Assembly (NCBI GenBank): GCA_963841435.1
Contig: CAWJCS010000002.1
Span: 640,001 to 704,000 of the forward strand
Source: an uncultured delta proteobacterium
GTDB taxonomy: Bacteria > Myxococcota_A > Polyangia > Polyangiales > Polyangiaceae
Reading direction: 5' to 3'
DNA: 64,000 bases
A program made the position numbers and the translations under genes. The first letter of the stretch is position 1. Every line of letters begins with the position of its first letter. The notes below the pieces were generated by a model that was given only the letters and a program-made list of their open reading frames with translations, was not told where the DNA came from and ran no database searches. Below are positions 22,736 to 34,540 of this stretch, one piece after another.

Positions 22736-23968
22736 TCAATCGATGCGGCGGATGCCTTCGAGGAAGCGTTCCGGCGGCACGAAGTCGGTGTAGCGCGCGG
22801 CCTCGCGTCCACGCGAATCGAACACGAGCACCGTGGGCAACCCGACGATGCCGAAGCGCTCGAGCGTCGCGCTCACGGTCGGATCGTCGTCGTTCGTGGC
22901 GTCGACCTTCACGGCGAGGAACCTACCGAGCTCGGCGCCGACGGCCGGCTCGGAGAACGTCACTTTGTCGAGCTCCTTGCAGGCGCCGCACCACGCGGCC
23001 GTGAAATCGACGACGAGCGGCCGGCTCTCGCGTTGTGCCTGCGCCTGCAGCGCCGCTATGTCGCCGCGCTGCCACGCGAGCGCCTCGCTCGGCTTGGTCA
23101 AGCCGAGCACCGCCGAGAATGCCCCCGCCGAAACCAACAACAGTCCGACGCCTTTGGCGACCTTCACGCCTGCACCGGGCTCGGAAAACTCGCGATGAAT
23201 GGCGCCGAGCAGCGTGCCCACGACCACCGCGATGCCCGCAGCGACGAACAGCGCCACGCCCGGCTTCACGAATGCGCCGAGCAGCGGGAATGCTGTGTTC
23301 AGGAAGTACAGCGCTACGACGACGAGCACGACGCCGAGGATCGATTTCACGTGGACCATCCAGTGCCCGCTCTTCGGCAGCTGCACGGCGAAGGTGCCCA
23401 CGGCGAAAAAAGGCGCTCCGAGCCCGAGCGCGAACGCACCCATCGCGAGCGCGCCGAGCGGAGCGCTCTTGGTCTTCGCAATCCACGTCAGGATGCCGGT
23501 CAGCACGGGTCCCGTGCACGGCGAGGCGATGAGCCCGCACGCGAGGCCCAAGAGGAAGGCGCCGCGGTACCCGATGCCGCCGATACTCGCGAGGCGATTC
23601 GTGACCGACGACGGCAGCGCGAGCTCGAAGGCACCGAATAGCGAGGCTGCGAGCAGCAGGAACAGGGCGGCCATCGCCGCAACGACCCAGCGGTTCTGCA
23701 GCACCGCGCCGAAGATCGAGCCGGTGAGGCCGGCGATGACGCCGAGCGGCACGAACATCGCGACGATGCCGAGCACGAACGCCGCCGAGAGTGCCGCGCC
23801 CTCCCAGCGCGTCGTCGACTTGCGCGCGCCGAACACGCTGACCGTCACGGCGATCATCGGGTACACGCACGGGGTGAGGCTCACGATGAACCCACCGGCG
23901 AGGGCCGCGAGCGCGGCATAGACGGGGCCCTTGCTCAGGGCCTCGGTGAACGCATCCGAGGGAGGCAC
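22736..23968 (-). CDS. dsbD: DsbD/CcdA-type thiol:disulfide interchange protein (TM domain plus thioredoxin)
   Basis: SLTPCVYPMI, ASPCTGP, LPKSGHWM, DFTAAWCGACKE; lacks the N-terminal Ig domain. Confidence 0.92.
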   Translation of the reverse strand: MPPSDAFTEALSKGPVYAALAALAGGFIVSLTPCVYPMIAVTVSVFGARKSTTRWEGAALSAAFVLGIVAMFVPLGVIAGLTGSIFGAVLQNRWVVAAMAALFLLLAASLFGAFELALPSSVTNRLASIGGIGYRGAFLLGLACGLIASPCTGPVLTGILTWIAKTKSAPLGALAMGAFALGLGAPFFAVGTFAVQLPKSGHWMVHVKSILGVVLVVVALYFLNTAFPLLGAFVKPGVALFVAAGIAVVVGTLLGAIHREFSEPGAGVKVAKGVGLLLVSAGAFSAVLGLTKPSEALAWQRGDIAALQAQAQRESRPLVVDFTAAWCGACKELDKVTFSEPAVGAELGRFLAVKVDATNDDDPTVSATLERFGIVGLPTVLVFDSRGREAARYTDFVPPERFLEGIRRID

Positions 23969-25719: not shown

Positions 25720-26958
25720 ATGGCCAAGCGCCCTCACGTTCTCGGCATGGTGCTCGCTGGCGGCGAAGGCCGGCGCCTGCACCCGCTCACGCGCGATCGC
25801 TGCAAGCCGGCCGTGCCCTTCGGTGCGAACTACCGCATCATCGATTTCGCGCTCTCGAATCTCGTGAACGGTCGCTTCCTGCGTATCGCGGTGCTCACGC
25901 AGTACAAGAGCCACAGTCTCGACCGCCACATCGCCCAGACCTGGCGCATGTCGCATCTGTTCAACAACTACGTGATGACCGTGCCCGCCCAGATGCGCCT
26001 CGGCAGGCGCTGGTTCGAGGGCTCCGCCGACGCCATCTACCAGAACCTGAATCTGATCGGCGACGAGCGGCCCGATTACATCTGCGTTTTCGGTGCCGAC
26101 CACATCTACCGCATGGATCCCGAGCAGATGGTGCAGGCGCACATCGAATCGGGAGCCGGCGTCACGGTCGCGGCGATGCGAGCCCCGCGCTCCGAGTCGT
26201 CGCGCTTCGGCGTGCTCGTGCCCGGATCGAACGGCCGCATCGCGCAGTTTCAGGAGAAGCCGGAGGTCGCCGAGGGGCTGCCGGACGATCCCGACAAGGT
26301 GTTCGTGTCGATGGGCAACTACGTGTTCAGCACGCGCGTGCTCGTCGACGCAGTCCGGACCGACGCCGAGAACAAGGACAGCGTCCACGACATGGGCGGC
26401 AACATCATCACCATGCTGGTCGAGGCGGGCATGGCCTCCGTGTACGACTTCGCGCTGAACAAGCTGCCCGGCGCCACCGAGCGTGACCGCGGGTACTGGC
26501 GCGACGTCGGCACGCTCGACAGCTACTTCGAGGCCAACATGGACCTCATCAGCGTGCACCCGATCTTCAACCTGTACAACCGCGATTGGCCGATTCACAC
26601 CGGCTTCAGTTCGCTTCCGCCTGCCAAGTTCGTGCTCGAGGAGGGCGACCGCCGCGGCGCGGCCTTCGACTCGATCATCAGCGCCGGCGTGATCGTCTCG
26701 GGTGGCACCGTGCGTCGCTCGGTGCTCTCGCCGGGAGTCTCCGTCCATTCGCGAGCGCTCGTCGAGGACTCGGTGCTTCTCGACGGGGTCGACGTGGGGC
26801 GCGACGCCATCGTGCGCCGTGCCATCGTCAACAAGAACGTGGTCATTCCGCGCGGTGCGCGCGTGGGCGTCAACGTGGACGAAGACCGGGCGCGAGGATA
26901 CACGTTCAGCGAAAACGGCATCGTCGTGCTCGGCAAGGGTGACGTGGTCAAGGCGTAG
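25720..26958 (+). CDS. glgC: glucose-1-phosphate adenylyltransferase (actinobacterial-like)
   Basis: [56 protein letters not shown]. Confidence 0.97.
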
Positions 26959-26976
26959 TCACGCCTCCGAGCCGAC

Positions 26977-28194
26977 ATGCAAAGAGAGCGCCGCCTCCAG
27001 GCCGCCATCGTCACGCGCGAGTACCCGCCCGAAATCTACGGGGGTGCGGGCGTTCACGTCGAACACCTCGTTCGCGCGCTCGCTTCCCATGTCGAGGTGC
27101 GCGTGCACTGCTTCGGCAAGCCTCGCGAGGCGCCGGAAGTGGCGGGCTGTTACGAGCCCTGGAGCGCTCTTTTGGGCTCGGAGCCCGAGCTCGCGGCGCT
27201 GCGCACGTTGTCGCTCGACCTTCTCGCAGCGCACCACCTGCGCGGCAGCGACATCGTGCACACGCACACCTGGTACGCAAACCTCGCCGGCCACCTCGCC
27301 AAGCTCCTCTACGGCGTCCCGCACGTGATGACTTCGCATAGCCTCGAGCCGCTCCGGCCCTGGAAGGTCGAGCAGCTCGGGGGCGGCTACGCGGTCTCGA
27401 GCTTCGCCGAGCGCACGGCGATCGAGAGTGCCGACGCCGTGATCGCCGTCTCGCAGGCCATGAAGCGCGACATCCTCGTGGCGTACCCCCTCGTTCCGAA
27501 CGAGCGCGTGCACGTGATCTACAACGGCATCGATCCGGACGAATACAAGCCCGACGGTGGTAGCGAGGTGCTCGCGCGCCGCGGTGTGGACGAAAAACGG
27601 CCTTACGTCGCCTTCGTAGGGCGCGTGACACGGCAGAAGGGCATCGTGCATCTCTTGCGCGCGGCGCGCTACACGGCCCCCGGCACGGCCTTCGTGCTCT
27701 GCGTGGGAGAGGCCGACACGCCCGAGATTGGCGCCGAGTTCGAGACGCTTGCTGCCGAAATCCACCGCGAGCGCGGCGGCATCGTGCGCATCGACGGCAT
27801 GGTGGCACGCTCGGAGGTTGCCCAGATCTTGAGCCACGCGCGCGCCTTCGTGTGCCCGTCGGTGTACGAGCCATTCGGCATCGTCAACCTCGAGGCCATG
27901 GCGTGCGGCGTGCCCGTCATCGCTTCGAGCGTCGGCGGCATTCCCGAAATCGTGGTCGAGGGCGAGACGGGATTTCTCGTCGCGTTCGAGGGTGACGGCA
28001 CCGCCAAGAACGAGCCGCGCGATCCCGAGGCGTTCGCTCGTGCGCTCGCGTCGCGCATCGACGAGCTCGTGAGCGATCCCGAACGAGCGCGCCGCATGGG
28101 CGAGGCCGGGCGCACCCGCGTCGTCGAGCACTTCTCGTGGGCCGCGATCGCCAAGCGCACGGCCGAGCTCTACCGGAGCCTGGTCGGGCGCTGA
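26977..28194 (+). CDS. glgA: GT4 glycogen synthase / maltose-1-phosphate synthase (Corynebacterium/Mycobacterium GlgA/GlgM type)
   Basis: TREYPPEIYGGAGVHV, HTHTWYANLAG, HSLEPLRPWKVEQLGGGY, FVGRVTRQKG, CPSVYEPFGIVNLEAMAC. Confidence 0.93.
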   Translation: MQRERRLQAAIVTREYPPEIYGGAGVHVEHLVRALASHVEVRVHCFGKPREAPEVAGCYEPWSALLGSEPELAALRTLSLDLLAAHHLRGSDIVHTHTWYANLAGHLAKLLYGVPHVMTSHSLEPLRPWKVEQLGGGYAVSSFAERTAIESADAVIAVSQAMKRDILVAYPLVPNERVHVIYNGIDPDEYKPDGGSEVLARRGVDEKRPYVAFVGRVTRQKGIVHLLRAARYTAPGTAFVLCVGEADTPEIGAEFETLAAEIHRERGGIVRIDGMVARSEVAQILSHARAFVCPSVYEPFGIVNLEAMACGVPVIASSVGGIPEIVVEGETGFLVAFEGDGTAKNEPRDPEAFARALASRIDELVSDPERARRMGEAGRTRVVEHFSWAAIAKRTAELYRSLVGR

Positions 28195-28231: not shown

Positions 28232-29572
28232 TCACGGTCGGAGTCGCAACACGAAGCGTTGCGGCGCGAGGCTTCGCGGCTCGGTCGCGAGATCGACGCT
28301 CGGGTCGATGAGGCGCTGGCTCGGTCGCCCGTTGAGGGCCGCCCAGGCGTCGGCATAGACGCTCACGTGGGTGTGCCCGCGAGCGCGGTAGCGCTCGGCG
28401 ACGTACAGAGCGTACTCGTGAATCATGTCCGGTTGGATCGACATCATCGCGTATTGCATCGGCGTGAGCTCGTCGTCGGGGAGGGCGCGGAGGCGCCGTG
28501 GGGGCGTGTCGGCGACCACGGTGAGCTCGACGTGCCCCGTCTTCTCGTTCAGCATCACGCGCCACGCAAAGCGAAAGCCCTCCTCGGTCCAGCTCGCCGC
28601 TCCGGGATAGAAAAGGGAGCGAGCGGGCAACACGAGCTGCGCGGCGAGCAGGATCGCGAGCGTGACTCGTTCGACACCGCGAACGACCCGTGGCTCGAGC
28701 CGCGCGGCGGGCTCTGGCCCCGCTCGCCAGGAGAAACGCAGCCAGCCGGGCTCGAAGAAGACCGTACAGGTCAGGACCATCAACCAGGAAAACACGCCGA
28801 TCGGGAACAGCAGCCCGACGAGCCCGTGAAACGCGACGGCGACGCCGAACGCCGCCGCCCGCGAGCGCCGAAAGAGGAGGAGCGGCACGATCGCGAGATC
28901 GAAGGCCACGCCGGCAAAGCTCGCCGCGTACGCCGTGGCGGGCGACGCGACGAGCGGGCCGACGAGCGGGAGCTCCGCGAAGCGACCGAGCCAGAGCCCG
29001 AGCGGCTGGGCGGAAAACAGCCAGTCTGGGTTGAGCTTGGCGACCCCCGCGTAAAAATACACGATGAAAAGCTGCGCGCGAAGCGCGTGGTACGCGAACG
29101 CCGGCACCTTACGCTCGTGGCCCCGGCGCCGTGCGTCGAGGGAAAAGGCCGCCCCAGCGTCGAGGATCACGAAGTAGAGCGCGACGAGACTCGCGAGATA
29201 GTAGTGGTTGAGGTACGTCGCCTTGTCGAAGAGCTCGGCGAGCGTGAACGTGACGAAGAACGTGAACGCCGCGAGCCGCGTCCACGCGCCGAGCATCAGC
29301 GCGACCGCAGCGAGCGCCATCAGCGAAAAGTGCACGGCGAGGCCAAAGGCTGGCCAGGGCCGCACCCATTCGAAGCCGAGATAGGTAAAGTGAAAGGAAG
29401 GCGCGAGGTAGAGCTCGGAAATCCAGCCCTTCGCCACGAATCGCAGGGTCGAGAGCAGCATCAGCGCGCCGAAGCCGATGCGGAACGCGGCGAGTCCCGC
29501 GGCATCGACGGGTCGCGCGAGAGCGGCGAGGGCGCGGCGAGCCAGGCGACGGCCGTGTTCAGTCGCCGTCAT
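28232..29572 (-). CDS. HTTM domain protein, vitamin K-dependent gamma-carboxylase homolog
   Basis: LAAFRIGFG, DKATYLNHYYL, YFYAGVAKLNPDWL, IGVFSWLM, WTEEGFRFAWRVML, QPDMI, LNGRPSQRLIDPSVDLA. Confidence 0.92.
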   Translation of the reverse strand: MTATEHGRRLARRALAALARPVDAAGLAAFRIGFGALMLLSTLRFVAKGWISELYLAPSFHFTYLGFEWVRPWPAFGLAVHFSLMALAAVALMLGAWTRLAAFTFFVTFTLAELFDKATYLNHYYLASLVALYFVILDAGAAFSLDARRRGHERKVPAFAYHALRAQLFIVYFYAGVAKLNPDWLFSAQPLGLWLGRFAELPLVGPLVASPATAYAASFAGVAFDLAIVPLLLFRRSRAAAFGVAVAFHGLVGLLFPIGVFSWLMVLTCTVFFEPGWLRFSWRAGPEPAARLEPRVVRGVERVTLAILLAAQLVLPARSLFYPGAASWTEEGFRFAWRVMLNEKTGHVELTVVADTPPRRLRALPDDELTPMQYAMMSIQPDMIHEYALYVAERYRARGHTHVSVYADAWAALNGRPSQRLIDPSVDLATEPRSLAPQRFVLRLRP

Positions 29573-30635
29573 TTTGGCTGAAGCCCACGCTCAGTGCGAG
29601 CGCGTTCACCATCTCGATCTGCACGAGCCGACCGAGCGCCGCGAGCGCGTCGACGGCGCGGCTGACGTCGCGCGGGCTCTCGCTCACGGCGCGAGTGAGC
29701 GGCTCCGGCACGGCCTCGACCGCCGCGCGTGCCGCGGTGAGTCGCTCGGTCATCACCCCGTCGAAATCGTGCCCGCGCGAGCGCAAGTACCGGCCTAGCC
29801 CGCTGCCCGCAGGGTCGCCGAAGTAAACGAGCGAGACGCCGTCGAGCGCGTCGCCGAGATCCGCGAGCGAGCGGCCGCTGAAGCGGGACTCGGCGGCGTC
29901 CGGGGCGGCGCTGCCCTCGGGTGCCTGTCCCAGTGGCTTTTCCAGTCGATCGATGCGCATCGCTTCGAGCGAGACGCCGAGCTCCTGCAAGACCGCCGAG
30001 ACGGCCAGCGTGAGCGACGCGTAGCGCGAGCTCGTGCGACCGGCGCCGACGAGCTCACCGAGATAGTCGTCGCCCGCCGGGTCCCAGGCCGCACGCAGCT
30101 CCGTGGCGCGGACCCGGAGGTCCTCCGTGAGCGCGAGCAGGTATTCGCAGCGTCGCGGAGTGTCCGAGAGCTCGGCGACGAGGTCCGCGTTCGGCTCGTA
30201 GAGCAGATACTCGATGGCGGGCATGCCCTTCTCGGCGGCGCCGAGCGTCGTCGGCCCCTCGTCGTCGAGCGTCAACGTGGAGGCGAGCACGCCTTCGATG
30301 GCGGCCGGGCGTGCCGGCCAGAAGTCGATCTTCGGGCCCAGCCTGAGCGGCTCGTCCGAGTAGGGGCCGAAGGCGAAAGCGTCCCCGCGCTTGAGCGGCG
30401 CGCGTGCCTCCCACCATGCACCGCGCGCGGACTCGAGCGAGCCGTCATCGGGCATCTCGCAGAGCGCCTCGGTCTCGTCGCGGAGCACCTCGGTGCGCGC
30501 TTCGAAATCCCGATAAACCGGCAGCACGACGCCGCCACCGAACGATTCGAGCCACGCGCGGCGCGCGTCCGGCACCTCGTACGGACTGCACGCACCGGCC
30601 ACGAAAAAGAGGGCGAGCGGTAGCGAGCGCCTCAC
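29559..30635 (-). CDS. imelysin (peptidase M75) family lipoprotein
   Basis: AGAC lipobox, ARGAW, IDFWP, KGMPAIEYLL, ESRFSGRS, C-terminal GFSQNDGD. Confidence 0.9.
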   Translation of the reverse strand: MRRSLPLALFFVAGACSPYEVPDARRAWLESFGGGVVLPVYRDFEARTEVLRDETEALCEMPDDGSLESARGAWWEARAPLKRGDAFAFGPYSDEPLRLGPKIDFWPARPAAIEGVLASTLTLDDEGPTTLGAAEKGMPAIEYLLYEPNADLVAELSDTPRRCEYLLALTEDLRVRATELRAAWDPAGDDYLGELVGAGRTSSRYASLTLAVSAVLQELGVSLEAMRIDRLEKPLGQAPEGSAAPDAAESRFSGRSLADLGDALDGVSLVYFGDPAGSGLGRYLRSRGHDFDGVMTERLTAARAAVEAVPEPLTRAVSESPRDVSRAVDALAALGRLVQIEMVNALALSVGFSQNDGD

Positions 30636-32036
30636 AGTGACTCCACGAAGACGACGAGCGCCGAGCGCTCCTCCAACGTCATGCTGCGGAACGCCTCGCG
30701 CGAGCTAGCGCCCTCACCGTCGTGCCACAGAACGGCTTCGGCGACGCCGCGAGCGCGCCCGTCGTGCAATAGGCGGTCGTGGCCGTTGACGGCAGGGACG
30801 CGGCCGACGCCCCAGAGCGGCGGTGTGCGCCACTCGCTCCCACCGGCGCCGAAGCTCGGGCGACCGTCGGAAAGCCCTTCGCCGAGGTCGTGCAGCAGAA
30901 GATCGGTGTACGGGAAGATCACCTGATGGGAGAGCTCGGGTAGATCCTCGACGTTGCCGGTCTCGTGTCGCGGGACGTGGCAGCGATCGCAGCCCGCGCT
31001 CGAAAAGAGCGCCTGCCCGCGCCGCACGGGCGCCTGGGCCGCGTCCTGTCGCGCCGGTACGGCGAGCAGCCGTGCGTAGATCTCCACGCGGTCGAGGATG
31101 TCGGGACCGACCTCGGGGTCGCCGCCCGTCACGCGTGCGGCGCATTCGCGCTCGGCGGCCGTGCAGTCCTGCTCGACGAAGAGCGGTGTCGTGAGCCCGA
31201 GGTCGCCGAGGAAGGCGCCCGCGGCTTGCTGGCGGACGGAAGGCTGCTCCGCTTTCCAGCCGAAGCGCCCCGGCTCCTCACGGCCGAGCGCCATGTCCCA
31301 CACGCGATTGAGGCGCCCCGAGATGCCGTCCTCGTCGGCATCGTCGGGATCCTCGAGCGCGTCGAGCCGCTCGACCGGTATCGCCTCGAGCAGGCCGAGG
31401 CCGATCATCGCGGGCGCCACGCGCGGTGACACGACGAGCTCTGGGTCGAGCTCGCCGTAGCCGGGCTCGTCGATGCCGTACGTCGGGGCGAGCAGCGTGT
31501 ACGGCTCGCCGTCGGCGAACGTTCCGGCCACCTCCTCGACCTCGAGTCGCGGTGTCCCCTCGACGGGCACGTCGTCGATCGCGAACGGCTGGAGCTGTCC
31601 GCCGTACGTCGGCTCCGGCAGGGGCTCGCCGTGGGGGCCGCGCCCGGGGACGCCGAGTCGCAGGAGCAAGCCGAGGAACGCCTCGTGCGGATTCGAGCGG
31701 CGGCCGGCCGCGGCCATCCTTGAAGTGGCACGCCGCGCACGAGCGTGCGTTGAAGAGTGGTCCGAGGCCGTCGCGCCCTGCCGTGCTCGAAGGCGCCTGC
31801 ACCCAGGGCTGGTTGAAGTACGCATTGCCCGCGAAAAAGAGCGGCTCGTGCTCGTCGCTCAGATTCGCCGCGGGCAGCGTGAAAGCGTTCGAGCCGCCGA
31901 GCAGCGTGTTGGTCGTGGCGCCGCCCGGCATGCGTTCCTCGAGCGCGGGTGACGTGTCCGATGGAGCTTGCGTCGAGCCGGAGCAGGCGAGCGTCGCGAG
32001 ACCCAGCGCGAGCGATAGCCGCAGAGCTGAGCTCAT
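30632..32036 (-). CDS. di-haem oxidoreductase family (DHOR/DUF1111) lipoprotein (apparent +1 frameshift at ~31692)
   Basis: LAC lipobox, DGLGPLFNARSCAACH, PTYGGQLQ, GLGLLEAIP, GRFGWKA, CDRCH, PYTDLLLHD, WRTPPLWG, LHDGRAR. The two track ORFs join on removing one base. Confidence 0.92.
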
Positions 32037-33215: not shown

Positions 33216-33545
33216 CTAGAGCGCTTGGTTTTGCCCCTCGGAGGCCGCCATCAGGTAGCGCACGACGAGCTCCTCCTCGCGCTCGTCGAGGCCTGCGGGC
33301 TTTGCCATCTCGCGCACGAGCCCCGGCCATCTTTCGGCGCGGAACGCCGACGGCTCGAAGGGCCGATGGCAGCGCCCGCAGTGCGAGAGCAGGATGTGCC
33401 GCCCCGCTTCGAGTGACTCGCGCGAGGAGCCGGGGAAGCGCGCTGCCGCGATCCTGACGTCGTTCGCGGTGACGGGGTGGAACGGCCCCGCGCACGCGCC
33501 CACGACGAGCGCTCCGACGAAGAGCCAGCCGAGCGCGCGCGTCAC
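33216..33545 (-). CDS. small monohaem cytochrome c lipoprotein
   Basis: GTG overlapping the upstream TGA, VGAC lipobox, CGRCH haem motif, distal W..LVREM. Confidence 0.8.
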   Translation of the reverse strand: MTRALGWLFVGALVVGACAGPFHPVTANDVRIAAARFPGSSRESLEAGRHILLSHCGRCHRPFEPSAFRAERWPGLVREMAKPAGLDEREEELVVRYLMAASEGQNQAL

Positions 33546-34378
33546 AGCCCGATTCCCACGATGGCGCGAAACCAGAATTTCCCCCATGGATCGCCCGCCA
33601 CCGCCGCCTTGCCGAAGTCGTCGAGCCGCGCGTACGCGCCGAGCGACAGGAAGTACTCGCCCGTCTGCAAGAGCAGCGTGGGTCCGAGATAGTGGTGCGC
33701 GCCCTCCTCCTCGCCAGCTTCTTCGCTTTCGAAGTTGCCGTGCACCCAGTACTCGATGCCGGGTGACACGCGCGGCGAGGCCTCGAAGCTCGCACCGAGC
33801 GTGGGGTTATACAGGTATTCCCAGCGTTTCTCGGCGAGCTTGTACTCCTGCTCGACCCAGAGGTTCGTGACGACCGTCACGGGGCCGAGCTGCTTGCTCA
33901 GAAGCACTTTCTCCTCGAGCTCGATCTCGTCGTAGAGCTCGGCGACCTCGACGTAGGCTCCCACGTTGACGGGCCACTCGCCGGCATCGGCGAAGCGGTA
34001 GCGCAAGCGCTGCTTGATGCCGTCGAGCGTCAGCCCGGGCTCGTCGGCGCTCGCCGCCTGCTGGTACGCGAAGTACCACCCGAGCTCCAGCGAATCGGTG
34101 ATGCCGAGCTCGATCTCCGATTGCATCTCGAAGCGCAGGGTCGGAACGCTCTCGGTGCCGCCCGCAAGCTCGCGCTCGGCGCGCGACGGAACAACGTCGA
34201 CGTACTGCTCGAGCTCGAGGTGCCCCGCGGGGAGCGTGACGTGCGGGTACGAAAACGGCAGCGGGTGAGGCGTCGCTCGGGCGACGCCGCTCGAGGCGAG
34301 CCCAAAAGCGCCCCCGAAGGCGGCCGCGAGCGCGTGGCGGCGCGTGGCAAAGAAAAGACGGGCGAAGCGGTCGAGCAC
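33542..34378 (-). CDS. putative outer-membrane beta-barrel protein (first gene of the Fur-box operon)
   Basis: Leader with TRRHAL...VARA, amphipathic beta-strand pattern, C-terminal FWFRAIVGIGL; start chosen downstream of the promoter. Confidence 0.7.
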   Translation of the reverse strand: MLDRFARLFFATRRHALAAAFGGAFGLASSGVARATPHPLPFSYPHVTLPAGHLELEQYVDVVPSRAERELAGGTESVPTLRFEMQSEIELGITDSLELGWYFAYQQAASADEPGLTLDGIKQRLRYRFADAGEWPVNVGAYVEVAELYDEIELEEKVLLSKQLGPVTVVTNLWVEQEYKLAEKRWEYLYNPTLGASFEASPRVSPGIEYWVHGNFESEEAGEEEGAHHYLGPTLLLQTGEYFLSLGAYARLDDFGKAAVAGDPWGKFWFRAIVGIGL

Positions 34379-34387
34379 GATGGCTAA

Positions 34388-34416
34388 ACGATAATGAAAG
34401 TGATTTGCAATTTCAA
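34388..34416 (-). promoter_or_regulatory. sigma70 promoter of the imelysin/DHOR/HTTM operon
   Basis: Minus strand TTGAAA-N17-TATCGT, overlapped by the Fur box, 9 nt before GTG. Confidence 0.7.
34390..34408. promoter_or_regulatory. Fur box
   Basis: GATAATGAAAGTGATTTGC matches 14/19 of GATAATGATAATCATTATC; lies in a conspicuous AT-rich patch upstream of iron-related genes. Confidence 0.85.
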
Positions 34417-34540
34417 CAAGAGTTTGGTGAAAGGCACCGTGACCAATGAAAACGGGCACTTGTGAGCGAGCCAGGCGTCTCCTGCGACGCTCGGCGGACA
34501 CCGGCGTGATCGTCCCGGTCGGGCTCTGCATGGAGCGGTC

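Follow-up and report, generated by a model that had tools for sequence, protein, structure and literature searches.

A core-only homologue of the vitamin K-dependent carboxylase paired with an IPPA-type imelysin in bacterial iron-uptake gene clusters

What do homologues of the vitamin K-dependent carboxylase do in bacteria? Their role has been open since a gene of this kind was noticed in Leptospira, and what is published so far amounts to a single enzyme from natural-product biosynthesis, MloH, and the broad statement that catalytic residues are retained. We consider the question here at one locus of an uncultured delta proteobacterium (family Polyangiaceae), in a window of 64,000 nucleotides (the whole stretch of DNA analysed; contig CAWJCS010000002.1, positions 640,001 to 704,000), where an HTTM-domain protein, P0001 (28232..29572, minus strand), is encoded in an operon with two imelysins and a di-haem oxidoreductase (DHOR). 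The window is chromosomal DNA of ~70 % G+C with housekeeping genes (ATP synthase, ClpB, GlmS, TyrRS), and the nearest relatives of its proteins are found in Myxococcota. An initial annotation had proposed that P0001 keeps the catalytic residues of human gamma-glutamyl carboxylase, GGCX, and may convert glutamate (Glu) in co-encoded exported proteins to gamma-carboxyglutamate (Gla).

The relationship to GGCX is plain. The open reading frame (ORF) translates without a stop into 446 amino acids, contains all five motifs quoted for it, and matches Pfam families HTTM (PF05090; residues 20-277, E 2.5e-74, 250.6 bits against a cutoff of 27.7, profile 2-259/259) and VKGC_lumenal_dom (PF22777; residues 303-444, E 8.9e-43, 146.3 bits against a cutoff of 27.7, profile 7-149/152). 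A phmmer search of all PDB chains recovered eight distinct sequences, every one of them human GGCX (best E 2.8e-38), over two stretches that pair query 12-280 with human 49-318 and query 304-430 with human ~367-490, at 26-28 % identity. The AlphaFold2 (AF2) model, computed with 27 homologues as input (mean predicted local distance difference test score, pLDDT, 82.7; predicted template-modelling score, pTM, 0.82), was compared with the PDB by Foldseek and gave 16 matches at E <= 0.001, again all GGCX, with the next match at E 0.076. Template-modelling (TM) scores were 0.65-0.82 when normalised by the query (~0.8 over the whole query) and 0.53-0.58 when normalised by the target. Alignment to GGCX and comparison of a predicted structure were the checks that the initial annotation had suggested, and in both only GGCX was matched. 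P0001 is a true GGCX homologue, and the likeness goes far beyond chance.

The likeness to the human enzyme (PDB 9bvk, 9l20, 9wf3 and others) spans the HTTM membrane domain and the first part of the lumenal domain. In the model, nine predicted membrane helices are joined to a small periplasmic domain with three beta-strands, the equivalent of clamp A; the C-terminus falls at about human residue 505, and the protein is ~310 residues shorter than GGCX. In the human enzyme a sheet of three strands, clamp A, and a jelly roll, clamp B, form the two sides of a cleft that holds the propeptide, and a C-terminal domain comes after them, as described in the available portion of a cryo-EM study that also defines the roles of individual residues (Wu 2025, PMC12647623). 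P0001 lacks both clamp B and the C-terminal domain: it ends near human residue 505, scores low when the TM-score is normalised by the target, and has three strands only, so that by alignment and model alike a bipartite cleft for the propeptide is missing. Where GGCX has the propeptide contacts Y415, Y425 and V430, P0001 has V, A and E, as counted on the phmmer alignment. P0001 is thus a genuine "core-only" bacterial member of the VKGC/HTTM family, an ordinary one and already annotated. A protein search for its relatives gave 2946 with E <= 1e-10 among 8000 candidates scored; both Pfam domains are present in each of the 120 relatives among the matches listed, of which many already bear the name "vitamin K-dependent gamma-carboxylase" or "HTTM domain-containing protein". 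As an observation apart, rare long forms of 902-1037 amino acids (P0129-P0131) carry MORN-repeat variants (PF07661) in addition to the HTTM and VKGC lumenal domains.

Which parts of the active site have been kept? Human residues are given here in full-length numbering, which is the GGCX chain number + 31 (758-aa chains match at 49-318), and residues were mapped by means of the phmmer alignment and of a family alignment of P0001 with 81 homologues (82 sequences), translated from 80 genomic loci. In GGCX, according to the available portion of the cryo-EM study, the role of general base falls to K218, which stacks on W223 beside D263; F299 stacks on CO2; N159, H160 and Y395 grip the Glu carboxylate; R436 grips the substrate backbone; and R406 and H440 grip the preceding Gla (Wu 2025, PMC12647623). 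The initial annotation knew of no established substrate for this type of operon, and was right in this, but two relevant points are in print. The available portion of the same paper cites MloH, a bacterial HTTM/VKGC aspartyl carboxylase of malonomycin biosynthesis (Law et al. 2018), and its conservation panel covers active-site residues in bacterial homologues, including Chondromyces and Kordia species (PMC12647623), such that conservation of the catalytic residues in bacteria is already published.

The motif pairs from which that annotation argued are borne out by the alignment. The phmmer alignment reproduces exactly the pairing of YLNHYYL with WNNHSYL, in which human H160 becomes H123, as well as those of YFYAGVAKLNPDW with YFIAGVKKLDADW, QPDMI with HADML, and LNGRPSQRLIDPSVDL with INDRFQQRIFDPRVDI, and it also aligns WTEEGFRFAWRVM with WTNGLYGYSWDMM. 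The equivalent of the catalytic K218 is K179. The set that serves the epoxidase half-reaction, K218, W223 and D263, is kept as K179, W184 and D225 in 82/82 sequences. For the carboxylase half-reaction, the CO2-pocket residue F261 (human F299) and the carboxylate ligands N122 and H123 (human N159 and H160) are likewise identical in all 82, as are W328 and W337 (human W390 and W399). Since the equivalents of F299 and of N159/H160 are kept in addition to the quinol site, the family may be expected to handle a carboxylate substrate and CO2.

The residues that recognise the animal substrate tell a different story. The stretch described as the Glu-binding region does align, but it differs at L394, Y395, D400, H404, R436 and H440. 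Human L394 is G332 (Gly in 79/82); the third carboxylate ligand, Y395, is F333 (Phe in 64, Tyr in 16, another residue in 2); G396 is R334 (Arg in 79/82) and D400 is R338 (Arg in 75/82); M401 and M402 are V339 and M340; H404 is N342, at a position that varies within the family; R406 is K344 (Lys in 82/82); R436 is M376, again variable (Q 41, M 26, R 9); and H440 is Q380 (Gln in 73/82). The family's own version of the loop, W-x-E-E-G-F/Y-R-F-A/S-W-R-V-M, is nearly fixed across Myxococcota, Bacteroidota, Chloroflexota and one Leptospiraceae genome. To judge from these alignments, P0001 would recognise its substrates differently from the animal enzyme, through a Glu loop rebuilt with two family-specific arginines. 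In short, the residues that perform the chemistry are kept and the animal apparatus for substrate recognition is not; the claim that P0001 retains the catalytic residues of GGCX stands for the quinol site, the CO2 site and part of the carboxylate site, and falls for the elements that recognise Glu and propeptide.

On which side of the membrane would such an active site lie? Counted on the helices of the model, Lys and Arg residues number 5, 0, 5, 2 and 5 in the N-terminus and alternate loops and 2, 1, 2 and 0 in the remaining loops. Because the positive charges cluster in the loops opposite to N122/H123, K179/W184, F261 and the C-terminal domain, the latter are predicted to be periplasmic. By the positive-inside rule and by homology, P0001 would be an inner-membrane protein with a cytoplasmic N-terminus and with its active site and C-terminal domain in the periplasm. 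The active site would then point away from the cytoplasm as it does in human GGCX, where it is lumenal; the cofactor would differ, being presumably the menaquinol of the bacterial membrane, and so does the setting of the gene, within an iron-uptake operon. P0001 carries one Cys only, which makes a VKOR- or DsbB-like thiol relay unlikely, and no VKOR-family or DsbB-type gene for epoxide recycling occurs among the 51 window ORFs scanned.

The gene neighbourhood offers a lead to function. A genome scan with one genome per species gave at least 582 relatives among 600 pattern matches listed, and the neighbourhood counts in this text refer to the best 80 loci of these, which belong to Myxococcota, Bacteroidota, Balneolaceae, Chloroflexota (Dehalococcoidia, Ardenticatenaceae), Leptospiraceae and Binatia. 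An imelysin of the IPPA type directly adjoins the HTTM gene in 66/80 loci by phmmer and in 73/80 with a profile of 52 imelysins, across at least five phyla. Three of the seven loci without an adjacent imelysin meet a contig end within ~260 nt of the HTTM start, and in two others the imelysin lies farther upstream, at 1.5 kb (L063) and 3.6 kb (L042).

Two arrangements recur, as judged from Pfam matches in 84 ORFs of 12 loci. The first, imelysin-DHOR-imelysin-HTTM, is found in Myxococcota, in Chloroflexota and in a Leptospiraceae fragment; the second, DUF4856-imelysin-HTTM-TonB-dependent receptor, is found in Bacteroidota and Balneolaceae, sometimes with the first imelysin and DHOR nearby on the opposite strand. 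In most Bacteroidota loci the canonical imelysin and DHOR are missing and the HTTM gene and IPPA-type imelysin are retained, and on a Chondrinema replicon, as annotated in RefSeq, imelysin, DHOR, imelysin, HTTM and TonB receptor stand in one row. The constant pair across these loci is the IPPA-type imelysin and HTTM. In the searchable literature we did not find descriptions of this linkage across phyla or of the alternation of HTTM with DUF1513 set out below, and among the papers listed for HTTM, none concerned iron uptake to judge by title or abstract. In L. interrogans, LIC_10713 (LruB) has been linked to LIC_10712 and LIC_10711 via STRING only (PMC8308593).

Not every relative has this context. 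In Tenacibaculum finnmarkense (L042:2254-8335), a fatty-acid-hydroxylase-family gene and a TonB receptor stand between the imelysin and HTTM. In one Bacteroidota locus the imelysin-linked HTTM gene is followed, 3 kb downstream, by a second and divergent paralogue (L016:5557-6891), whose motifs YNNHYYL and EEAYRMSWMMM bring the active-site loop nearer to the animal pattern at some positions. As a further comparison, the available portion of a preprint predicts that an HTTM-DCC protein pairs with a neighbouring DUF5819 protein (bioRxiv 10.64898/2026.08.19.745780). There the periplasmic or lumenal side would be completed by a separately encoded neighbour, as could also hold for HTTM and imelysin, although the partner family is another one and the C-terminus is DCC1-like, in contrast to the VKGC lumenal domain of P0001.

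If the imelysin is the constant partner, does iron control the pair? Between positions 28000 and 34700 of the window there is a single sigma-70-like site, at 34416-34388 on the minus strand (0.2 expected), and this candidate promoter, TTGAAA-17-TATCGT, is overlain by a Fur-box-like site (34390-34408) that matches the 19-mer consensus at 14/19 positions, the best match in the whole window. A second match (13/19) follows six bases on, both lie in an island of 27 % G+C, and a score of 14/19 was reached anywhere in the window in 5/300 block shuffles. Related clusters point to iron control. In Riemerella anatipestifer a TonB receptor, a "vitamin K-dependent gamma-carboxylase", an imelysin and a hypothetical protein are encoded by consecutive genes, which are putatively Fur-regulated and are induced by iron restriction (PMC5609570, Table 4); this cluster is where the direct expression evidence for iron regulation lies. 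Further, the available portions of two papers on Proteobacteria report that an operon of EfeO-like, DUF1111, EfeO-like and DUF1513 genes is cofit and assigned to iron uptake (Price et al., bioRxiv 10.1101/072470), and that PA4370-PA4373 of P. aeruginosa, with two imelysins and a DUF1111 protein, is Fur-regulated (Xu 2011, PMC3143127).

The operon of the PA4370-PA4373 type, which is linked to Fur or iron, resembles ours in its first three genes, for a GxHxxE imelysin, a di-haem oxidoreductase and a GxxxxE imelysin of the IPPA type ending in DGD. It differs in the fourth gene, which encodes a periplasmic DUF1513 beta-propeller rather than HTTM. The same is seen on a plasmid of P. aeruginosa RW109 (L083:3491-7081), where DHOR and an imelysin ending in HDGD (L083:4914-5975) are followed by a DUF1513 match at E 2e-109. 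The fourth slot of the operon looks like a case of non-homologous replacement: Proteobacteria fill it with DUF1513, whereas Myxococcota, Bacteroidota, Chloroflexota and Leptospiraceae have HTTM there. The HTTM version is seen in phyla that use menaquinone and the DUF1513 version in Proteobacteria, which mostly use ubiquinone, and the choice may track the quinone type.

The HTTM protein, as the sole polytopic membrane protein of the operon, might be thought to serve as a non-catalytic partner, that is, as an inner-membrane anchor, receptor or permease for imelysin-bound iron in place of the EfeU of EfeUOB-like systems. Imelysin operons of this type indeed lack an EfeU permease, according to the available text of Xu 2011 (PMC3143127). 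Invariance of the known GGCX catalytic residues across phyla, at ~40 % overall identity, however marks an enzyme and not a scaffold. Neither REXXE-type permease motifs nor other transporter folds were found in P0001, and its Foldseek matches are to GGCX only. We regard this as the least probable of the explanations weighed here.

The partner itself can be described in some detail. P0002 (29559..30635, minus strand; 358 aa; Pfam Peptidase_M75, 8.8e-44) carries the GxxxxE variant motif, a lipobox cysteine (Cys16) and a C-terminal ...NDGD tail (29559-29582). A profile built from 52 P0002 orthologues matches PDB 3pf0 (IPPA) at 3.8e-31, in an alignment that reaches the final residue of 3pf0, and Foldseek of the AF2 model (pLDDT 93) returns 4ecg, 3pf0 and 7xrx. 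The available text of Xu 2011 (PMC3143127) reports that the His of GxHxxE is missing from IPPA-family imelysins and that the last six residues of 3pf0 are disordered in the crystal; the words "carboxylase" and "DGD" do not occur in that text and the tail is not discussed. Because the last eight residues of the P0002 model average a pLDDT of 58 and the same end is disordered in 3pf0, the C-terminal tail is probably flexible. Across the 52 partner imelysins C16, D356 and D358 are invariant, and the tail, Asp-x-Asp-Gly-Asp, is almost so: DGD is found in 51/52 and DAD in one, at the very end in 45/52 and followed by 1-3 residues in seven Chloroflexota sequences.

These sequences bear directly on the model of the initial annotation, in which P0001 writes Gla on Glu residues of both imelysins and of the ESEEAGEEEGAHH loop of the outer-membrane (OM) protein. 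The exported proteins that it named, two imelysins and an OM-like protein with ESEEAGEEEGAHH, are indeed co-encoded; they are acidic, the catalytic core is conserved, the active site is predicted to be periplasmic, and the linkage to imelysin is conserved. The OM protein, however, has orthologues in 3/80 loci only (L001, L002 and L050), and even among these the acidic loop is a gapped, variable stretch, for which reason the loop was rejected as a conserved substrate. The canonical imelysin, too, is among the genes missing from most Bacteroidota loci. Within the partner imelysin a conserved Glu site was sought among the 52 sequences and there is none: the best column holds 43/52, the GxxxxE position has E in 27 and D in 23, and the two tail aspartates are the only invariant acidic residues. 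With L394, Y395, R436 and H440 not kept on the side of the enzyme, Gla formation on these proteins seems very improbable.

We therefore turn to a broader reading, in which P0001 is a periplasm-facing core carboxylase/epoxidase, dependent on menaquinol and O2, that acts with the imelysin module and carboxylates a periplasmic partner; we hold it tentatively, at a probability of roughly 0.4. P0001 would bind menaquinol, and Lys179, positioned by Trp184 and Asp225, would deprotonate it. The quinolate would react with O2 to form a strong base, which would take a C-H proton from a carboxylate-bearing substrate gripped by Asn122 and His123, and CO2 would then be added from the Phe261 pocket. P0001 and the IPPA-type imelysin lipoprotein would form a fixed two-gene module inside an iron-regulated operon for periplasmic and outer-membrane iron acquisition. 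Because the module is fixed within such an operon, the most likely target would be an acidic residue of the module partner, with the adjacent imelysin as first candidate.

MloH shows that bacteria can use this chemistry, and why a substrate other than Glu is conceivable. It is, as far as the available portion of the paper citing it goes, an enzyme of the VKGC family from a bacterium, without the animal propeptide system and with a non-Glu substrate (PMC12647623). It differs in that it acts on a polyketide/non-ribosomal peptide intermediate within a biosynthetic cluster, and no domains of non-ribosomal peptide synthetases (NRPS) or polyketide synthases (PKS) were found by Pfam in the 51 window ORFs or in the 84 ORFs of 12 related loci. 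An enzyme that carboxylates the acidic tail of its partner is possible, and the extra arginines of the loop would suit it.

Taken further, P0001 could be the first bacterial VKGC that modifies a protein, turning an Asp of the partner imelysin into beta-carboxy-Asp, a malonate-type chelator, with the tail aspartates as the best-conserved candidates. The two family-specific loop arginines would then hold the imelysin tail, and the product would be a high-affinity iron-capture site in menaquinone-using phyla, with DUF1513 in its place in Proteobacteria. This extension is rather improbable as it stands. The DGD tail was considered as a mark of HTTM substrates, and that idea is weakened by finding the tail with DUF1513 and in 3pf0, the chain of Psychrobacter IPPA (known here from the structure entry alone), which also ends in DGD; from these sequences the tail is a hallmark of IPPA imelysins and not of the pairing with HTTM.

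Several results weigh against carboxylation of a partner more generally. The anchors for dipeptide and Gla, L394, Y395, R406, R436 and H440, are replaced in P0001 by G, F, K, M and Q, and the coupling residue K217 is Ala178, with Ala in 77/82 sequences. The 52 partner imelysins lack an invariant Glu, and their DGD tail is also present where DUF1513 replaces HTTM, on the P. aeruginosa plasmid. No imelysin-HTTM fusion occurs among the six longer relatives listed, three of which have MORN repeats; this is weak evidence. Two loci, L003 and L045 (2/77 informative loci), have no imelysin within the ~7 kb available. A HTTM protein of 37 % identity on a Paracoccus albus plasmid (L081:6437-8305) likewise has no imelysin nearby; its neighbour is a divergently transcribed DUF393 gene (DCC-type thiol-disulfide oxidoreductase), a different context.

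The first of these points leads to the possibility that P0001 is an epoxidase only, which would oxygenate menaquinol without carboxylation. The base formed, or the consumption of quinol and O2, would then serve the iron module in another way, for example by deprotonating a different substrate or by local control of redox state and O2 where the di-haem protein and the imelysins handle Fe(II)/Fe(III). According to the available portion of a 2025 preprint, K217 couples epoxidation to Glu binding, and Leptospira homologues, which lack it, show no substrate-activated epoxidation; most of the P0001 family lacks K217 too. The diverged Glu-binding loop and the missing propeptide exosite point the same way, and the non-homologous, periplasmic DUF1513 in the same slot hints that the function of the slot need not be carboxylation. 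The Leptospira enzyme is probably close to ours: the Leptospiraceae locus (L030) has the motifs YLNHYYL, AKLNGDW and EEGFRFAWRVM and the order DHOR-imelysin-HTTM, so that the published orthologue probably belongs, by sequence, to the same subfamily as P0001 and its biochemistry probably concerns the same family. That enzyme is said, from work by Rishavy et al. in 2005, to have epoxidase activity, with Glu-carboxylase activity not detected on animal-type Glu substrates. Such substrates, however, are not ones that the P0001 family would be expected to recognise. The same work reportedly proposed a recent transfer of the Leptospira gene from animals, to which the breadth of the family, at least 582 of 600 pattern matches listed and many phyla, does not fit.

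Against an epoxidase without carboxylation stand the invariant equivalents of F299 and of N159/H160, 82/82 in each case, which would be difficult to account for in an enzyme that no longer binds CO2 and a carboxylate substrate, and the example of MloH, which carboxylates without the animal exosite (available portion of PMC12647623). We consider epoxidation alone possible, if on balance unlikely, and continue to favour a carboxylase/epoxidase that acts on a periplasmic partner.

We now turn to the rest of the operon. Its genes run on the minus strand in the order OM barrel, cytochrome c, imelysin, di-haem oxidoreductase, imelysin and HTTM. The HTTM start overlaps the stop of P0002 by 14 nt, and the overlapping genes from the imelysins to HTTM suggest translational coupling. 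P0002, DHOR, P0125 and the CxxCH protein, the four periplasmic proteins, all have lipoprotein-like signal peptides ending in Cys. P0125 (32033..33199, minus strand; 388 aa; Pfam Peptidase_M75, 7.4e-77) is a canonical imelysin lipoprotein with GxHxxE as GYHAVE, and it matches the NCBIfam model for the Leptospira LruB imelysin weakly (1.9e-37) and below the cutoff; P0001, P0002 and the DHOR pieces matched no NCBIfam model.

The GxHxxE imelysin, di-haem oxidoreductase and GxxxxE imelysin thus occur together, with the gene for the DHOR/DUF1111 lipoprotein (30632..32036, minus strand; Pfam DHOR, tblastn) divided between two frames. Positions 211-499 of the DHOR profile fall in the ORF 30632..31825 and positions 7-85 in the ORF 31278..32036. 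By tblastn with three orthologues, a one-base frame change lies between 31698 and 31684, where 13 nt separate the conserved GRGRPP and EAFLGL, as against four codons in the L001 orthologue. The change reflects either an error of assembly or sequencing or a true frameshift, in an operon that is intact otherwise.

Two further genes lie upstream. The first encodes, by translation, a small predicted lipoprotein with a single CxxCH haem-c motif, CGRCH (33216..33587, minus strand; start codon uncertain), for which only L001 and L002 have homologues in the corresponding place. The second encodes the OM beta-barrel-like protein with the ESEEAGEEEGAHH loop (33542..34351, minus strand, from orthologue alignment). 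Its start is probably near 34350 and not at the ATG at 34531, as orthologues align from residue 68-78; it has no Pfam match, and its look-alikes in the ESM Atlas are DUF6662 / Phenol_MetA_deg clusters (score 0.96-0.97), a lead only. Beyond the operon, GlgC- and GlgA-like genes (25720-28194, plus strand) converge on the HTTM gene across a gap of 37 nt, and a DsbD-like membrane protein with a fused thioredoxin domain is encoded at 22736-23968 (minus strand), ~4 kb from the operon.

In answer to the question with which we began, the 80 loci define a large, widespread subfamily of bacterial vitamin K-dependent carboxylase homologues that is tied to one partner, the IPPA-type imelysin, in iron-regulated uptake clusters. 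This linkage turns the search for a substrate into a short list of testable candidates, and it joins two poorly understood systems, iron uptake by imelysin and DUF1111 proteins and the HTTM enzymes. Should the carboxylation of a periplasmic protein prove true, it would be a new bacterial post-translational modification for metal acquisition and would give the quinol-driven chemistry of CO2 fixation a second natural setting. Should the enzyme carry out epoxidation only, it would represent a new use of vitamin K base chemistry.

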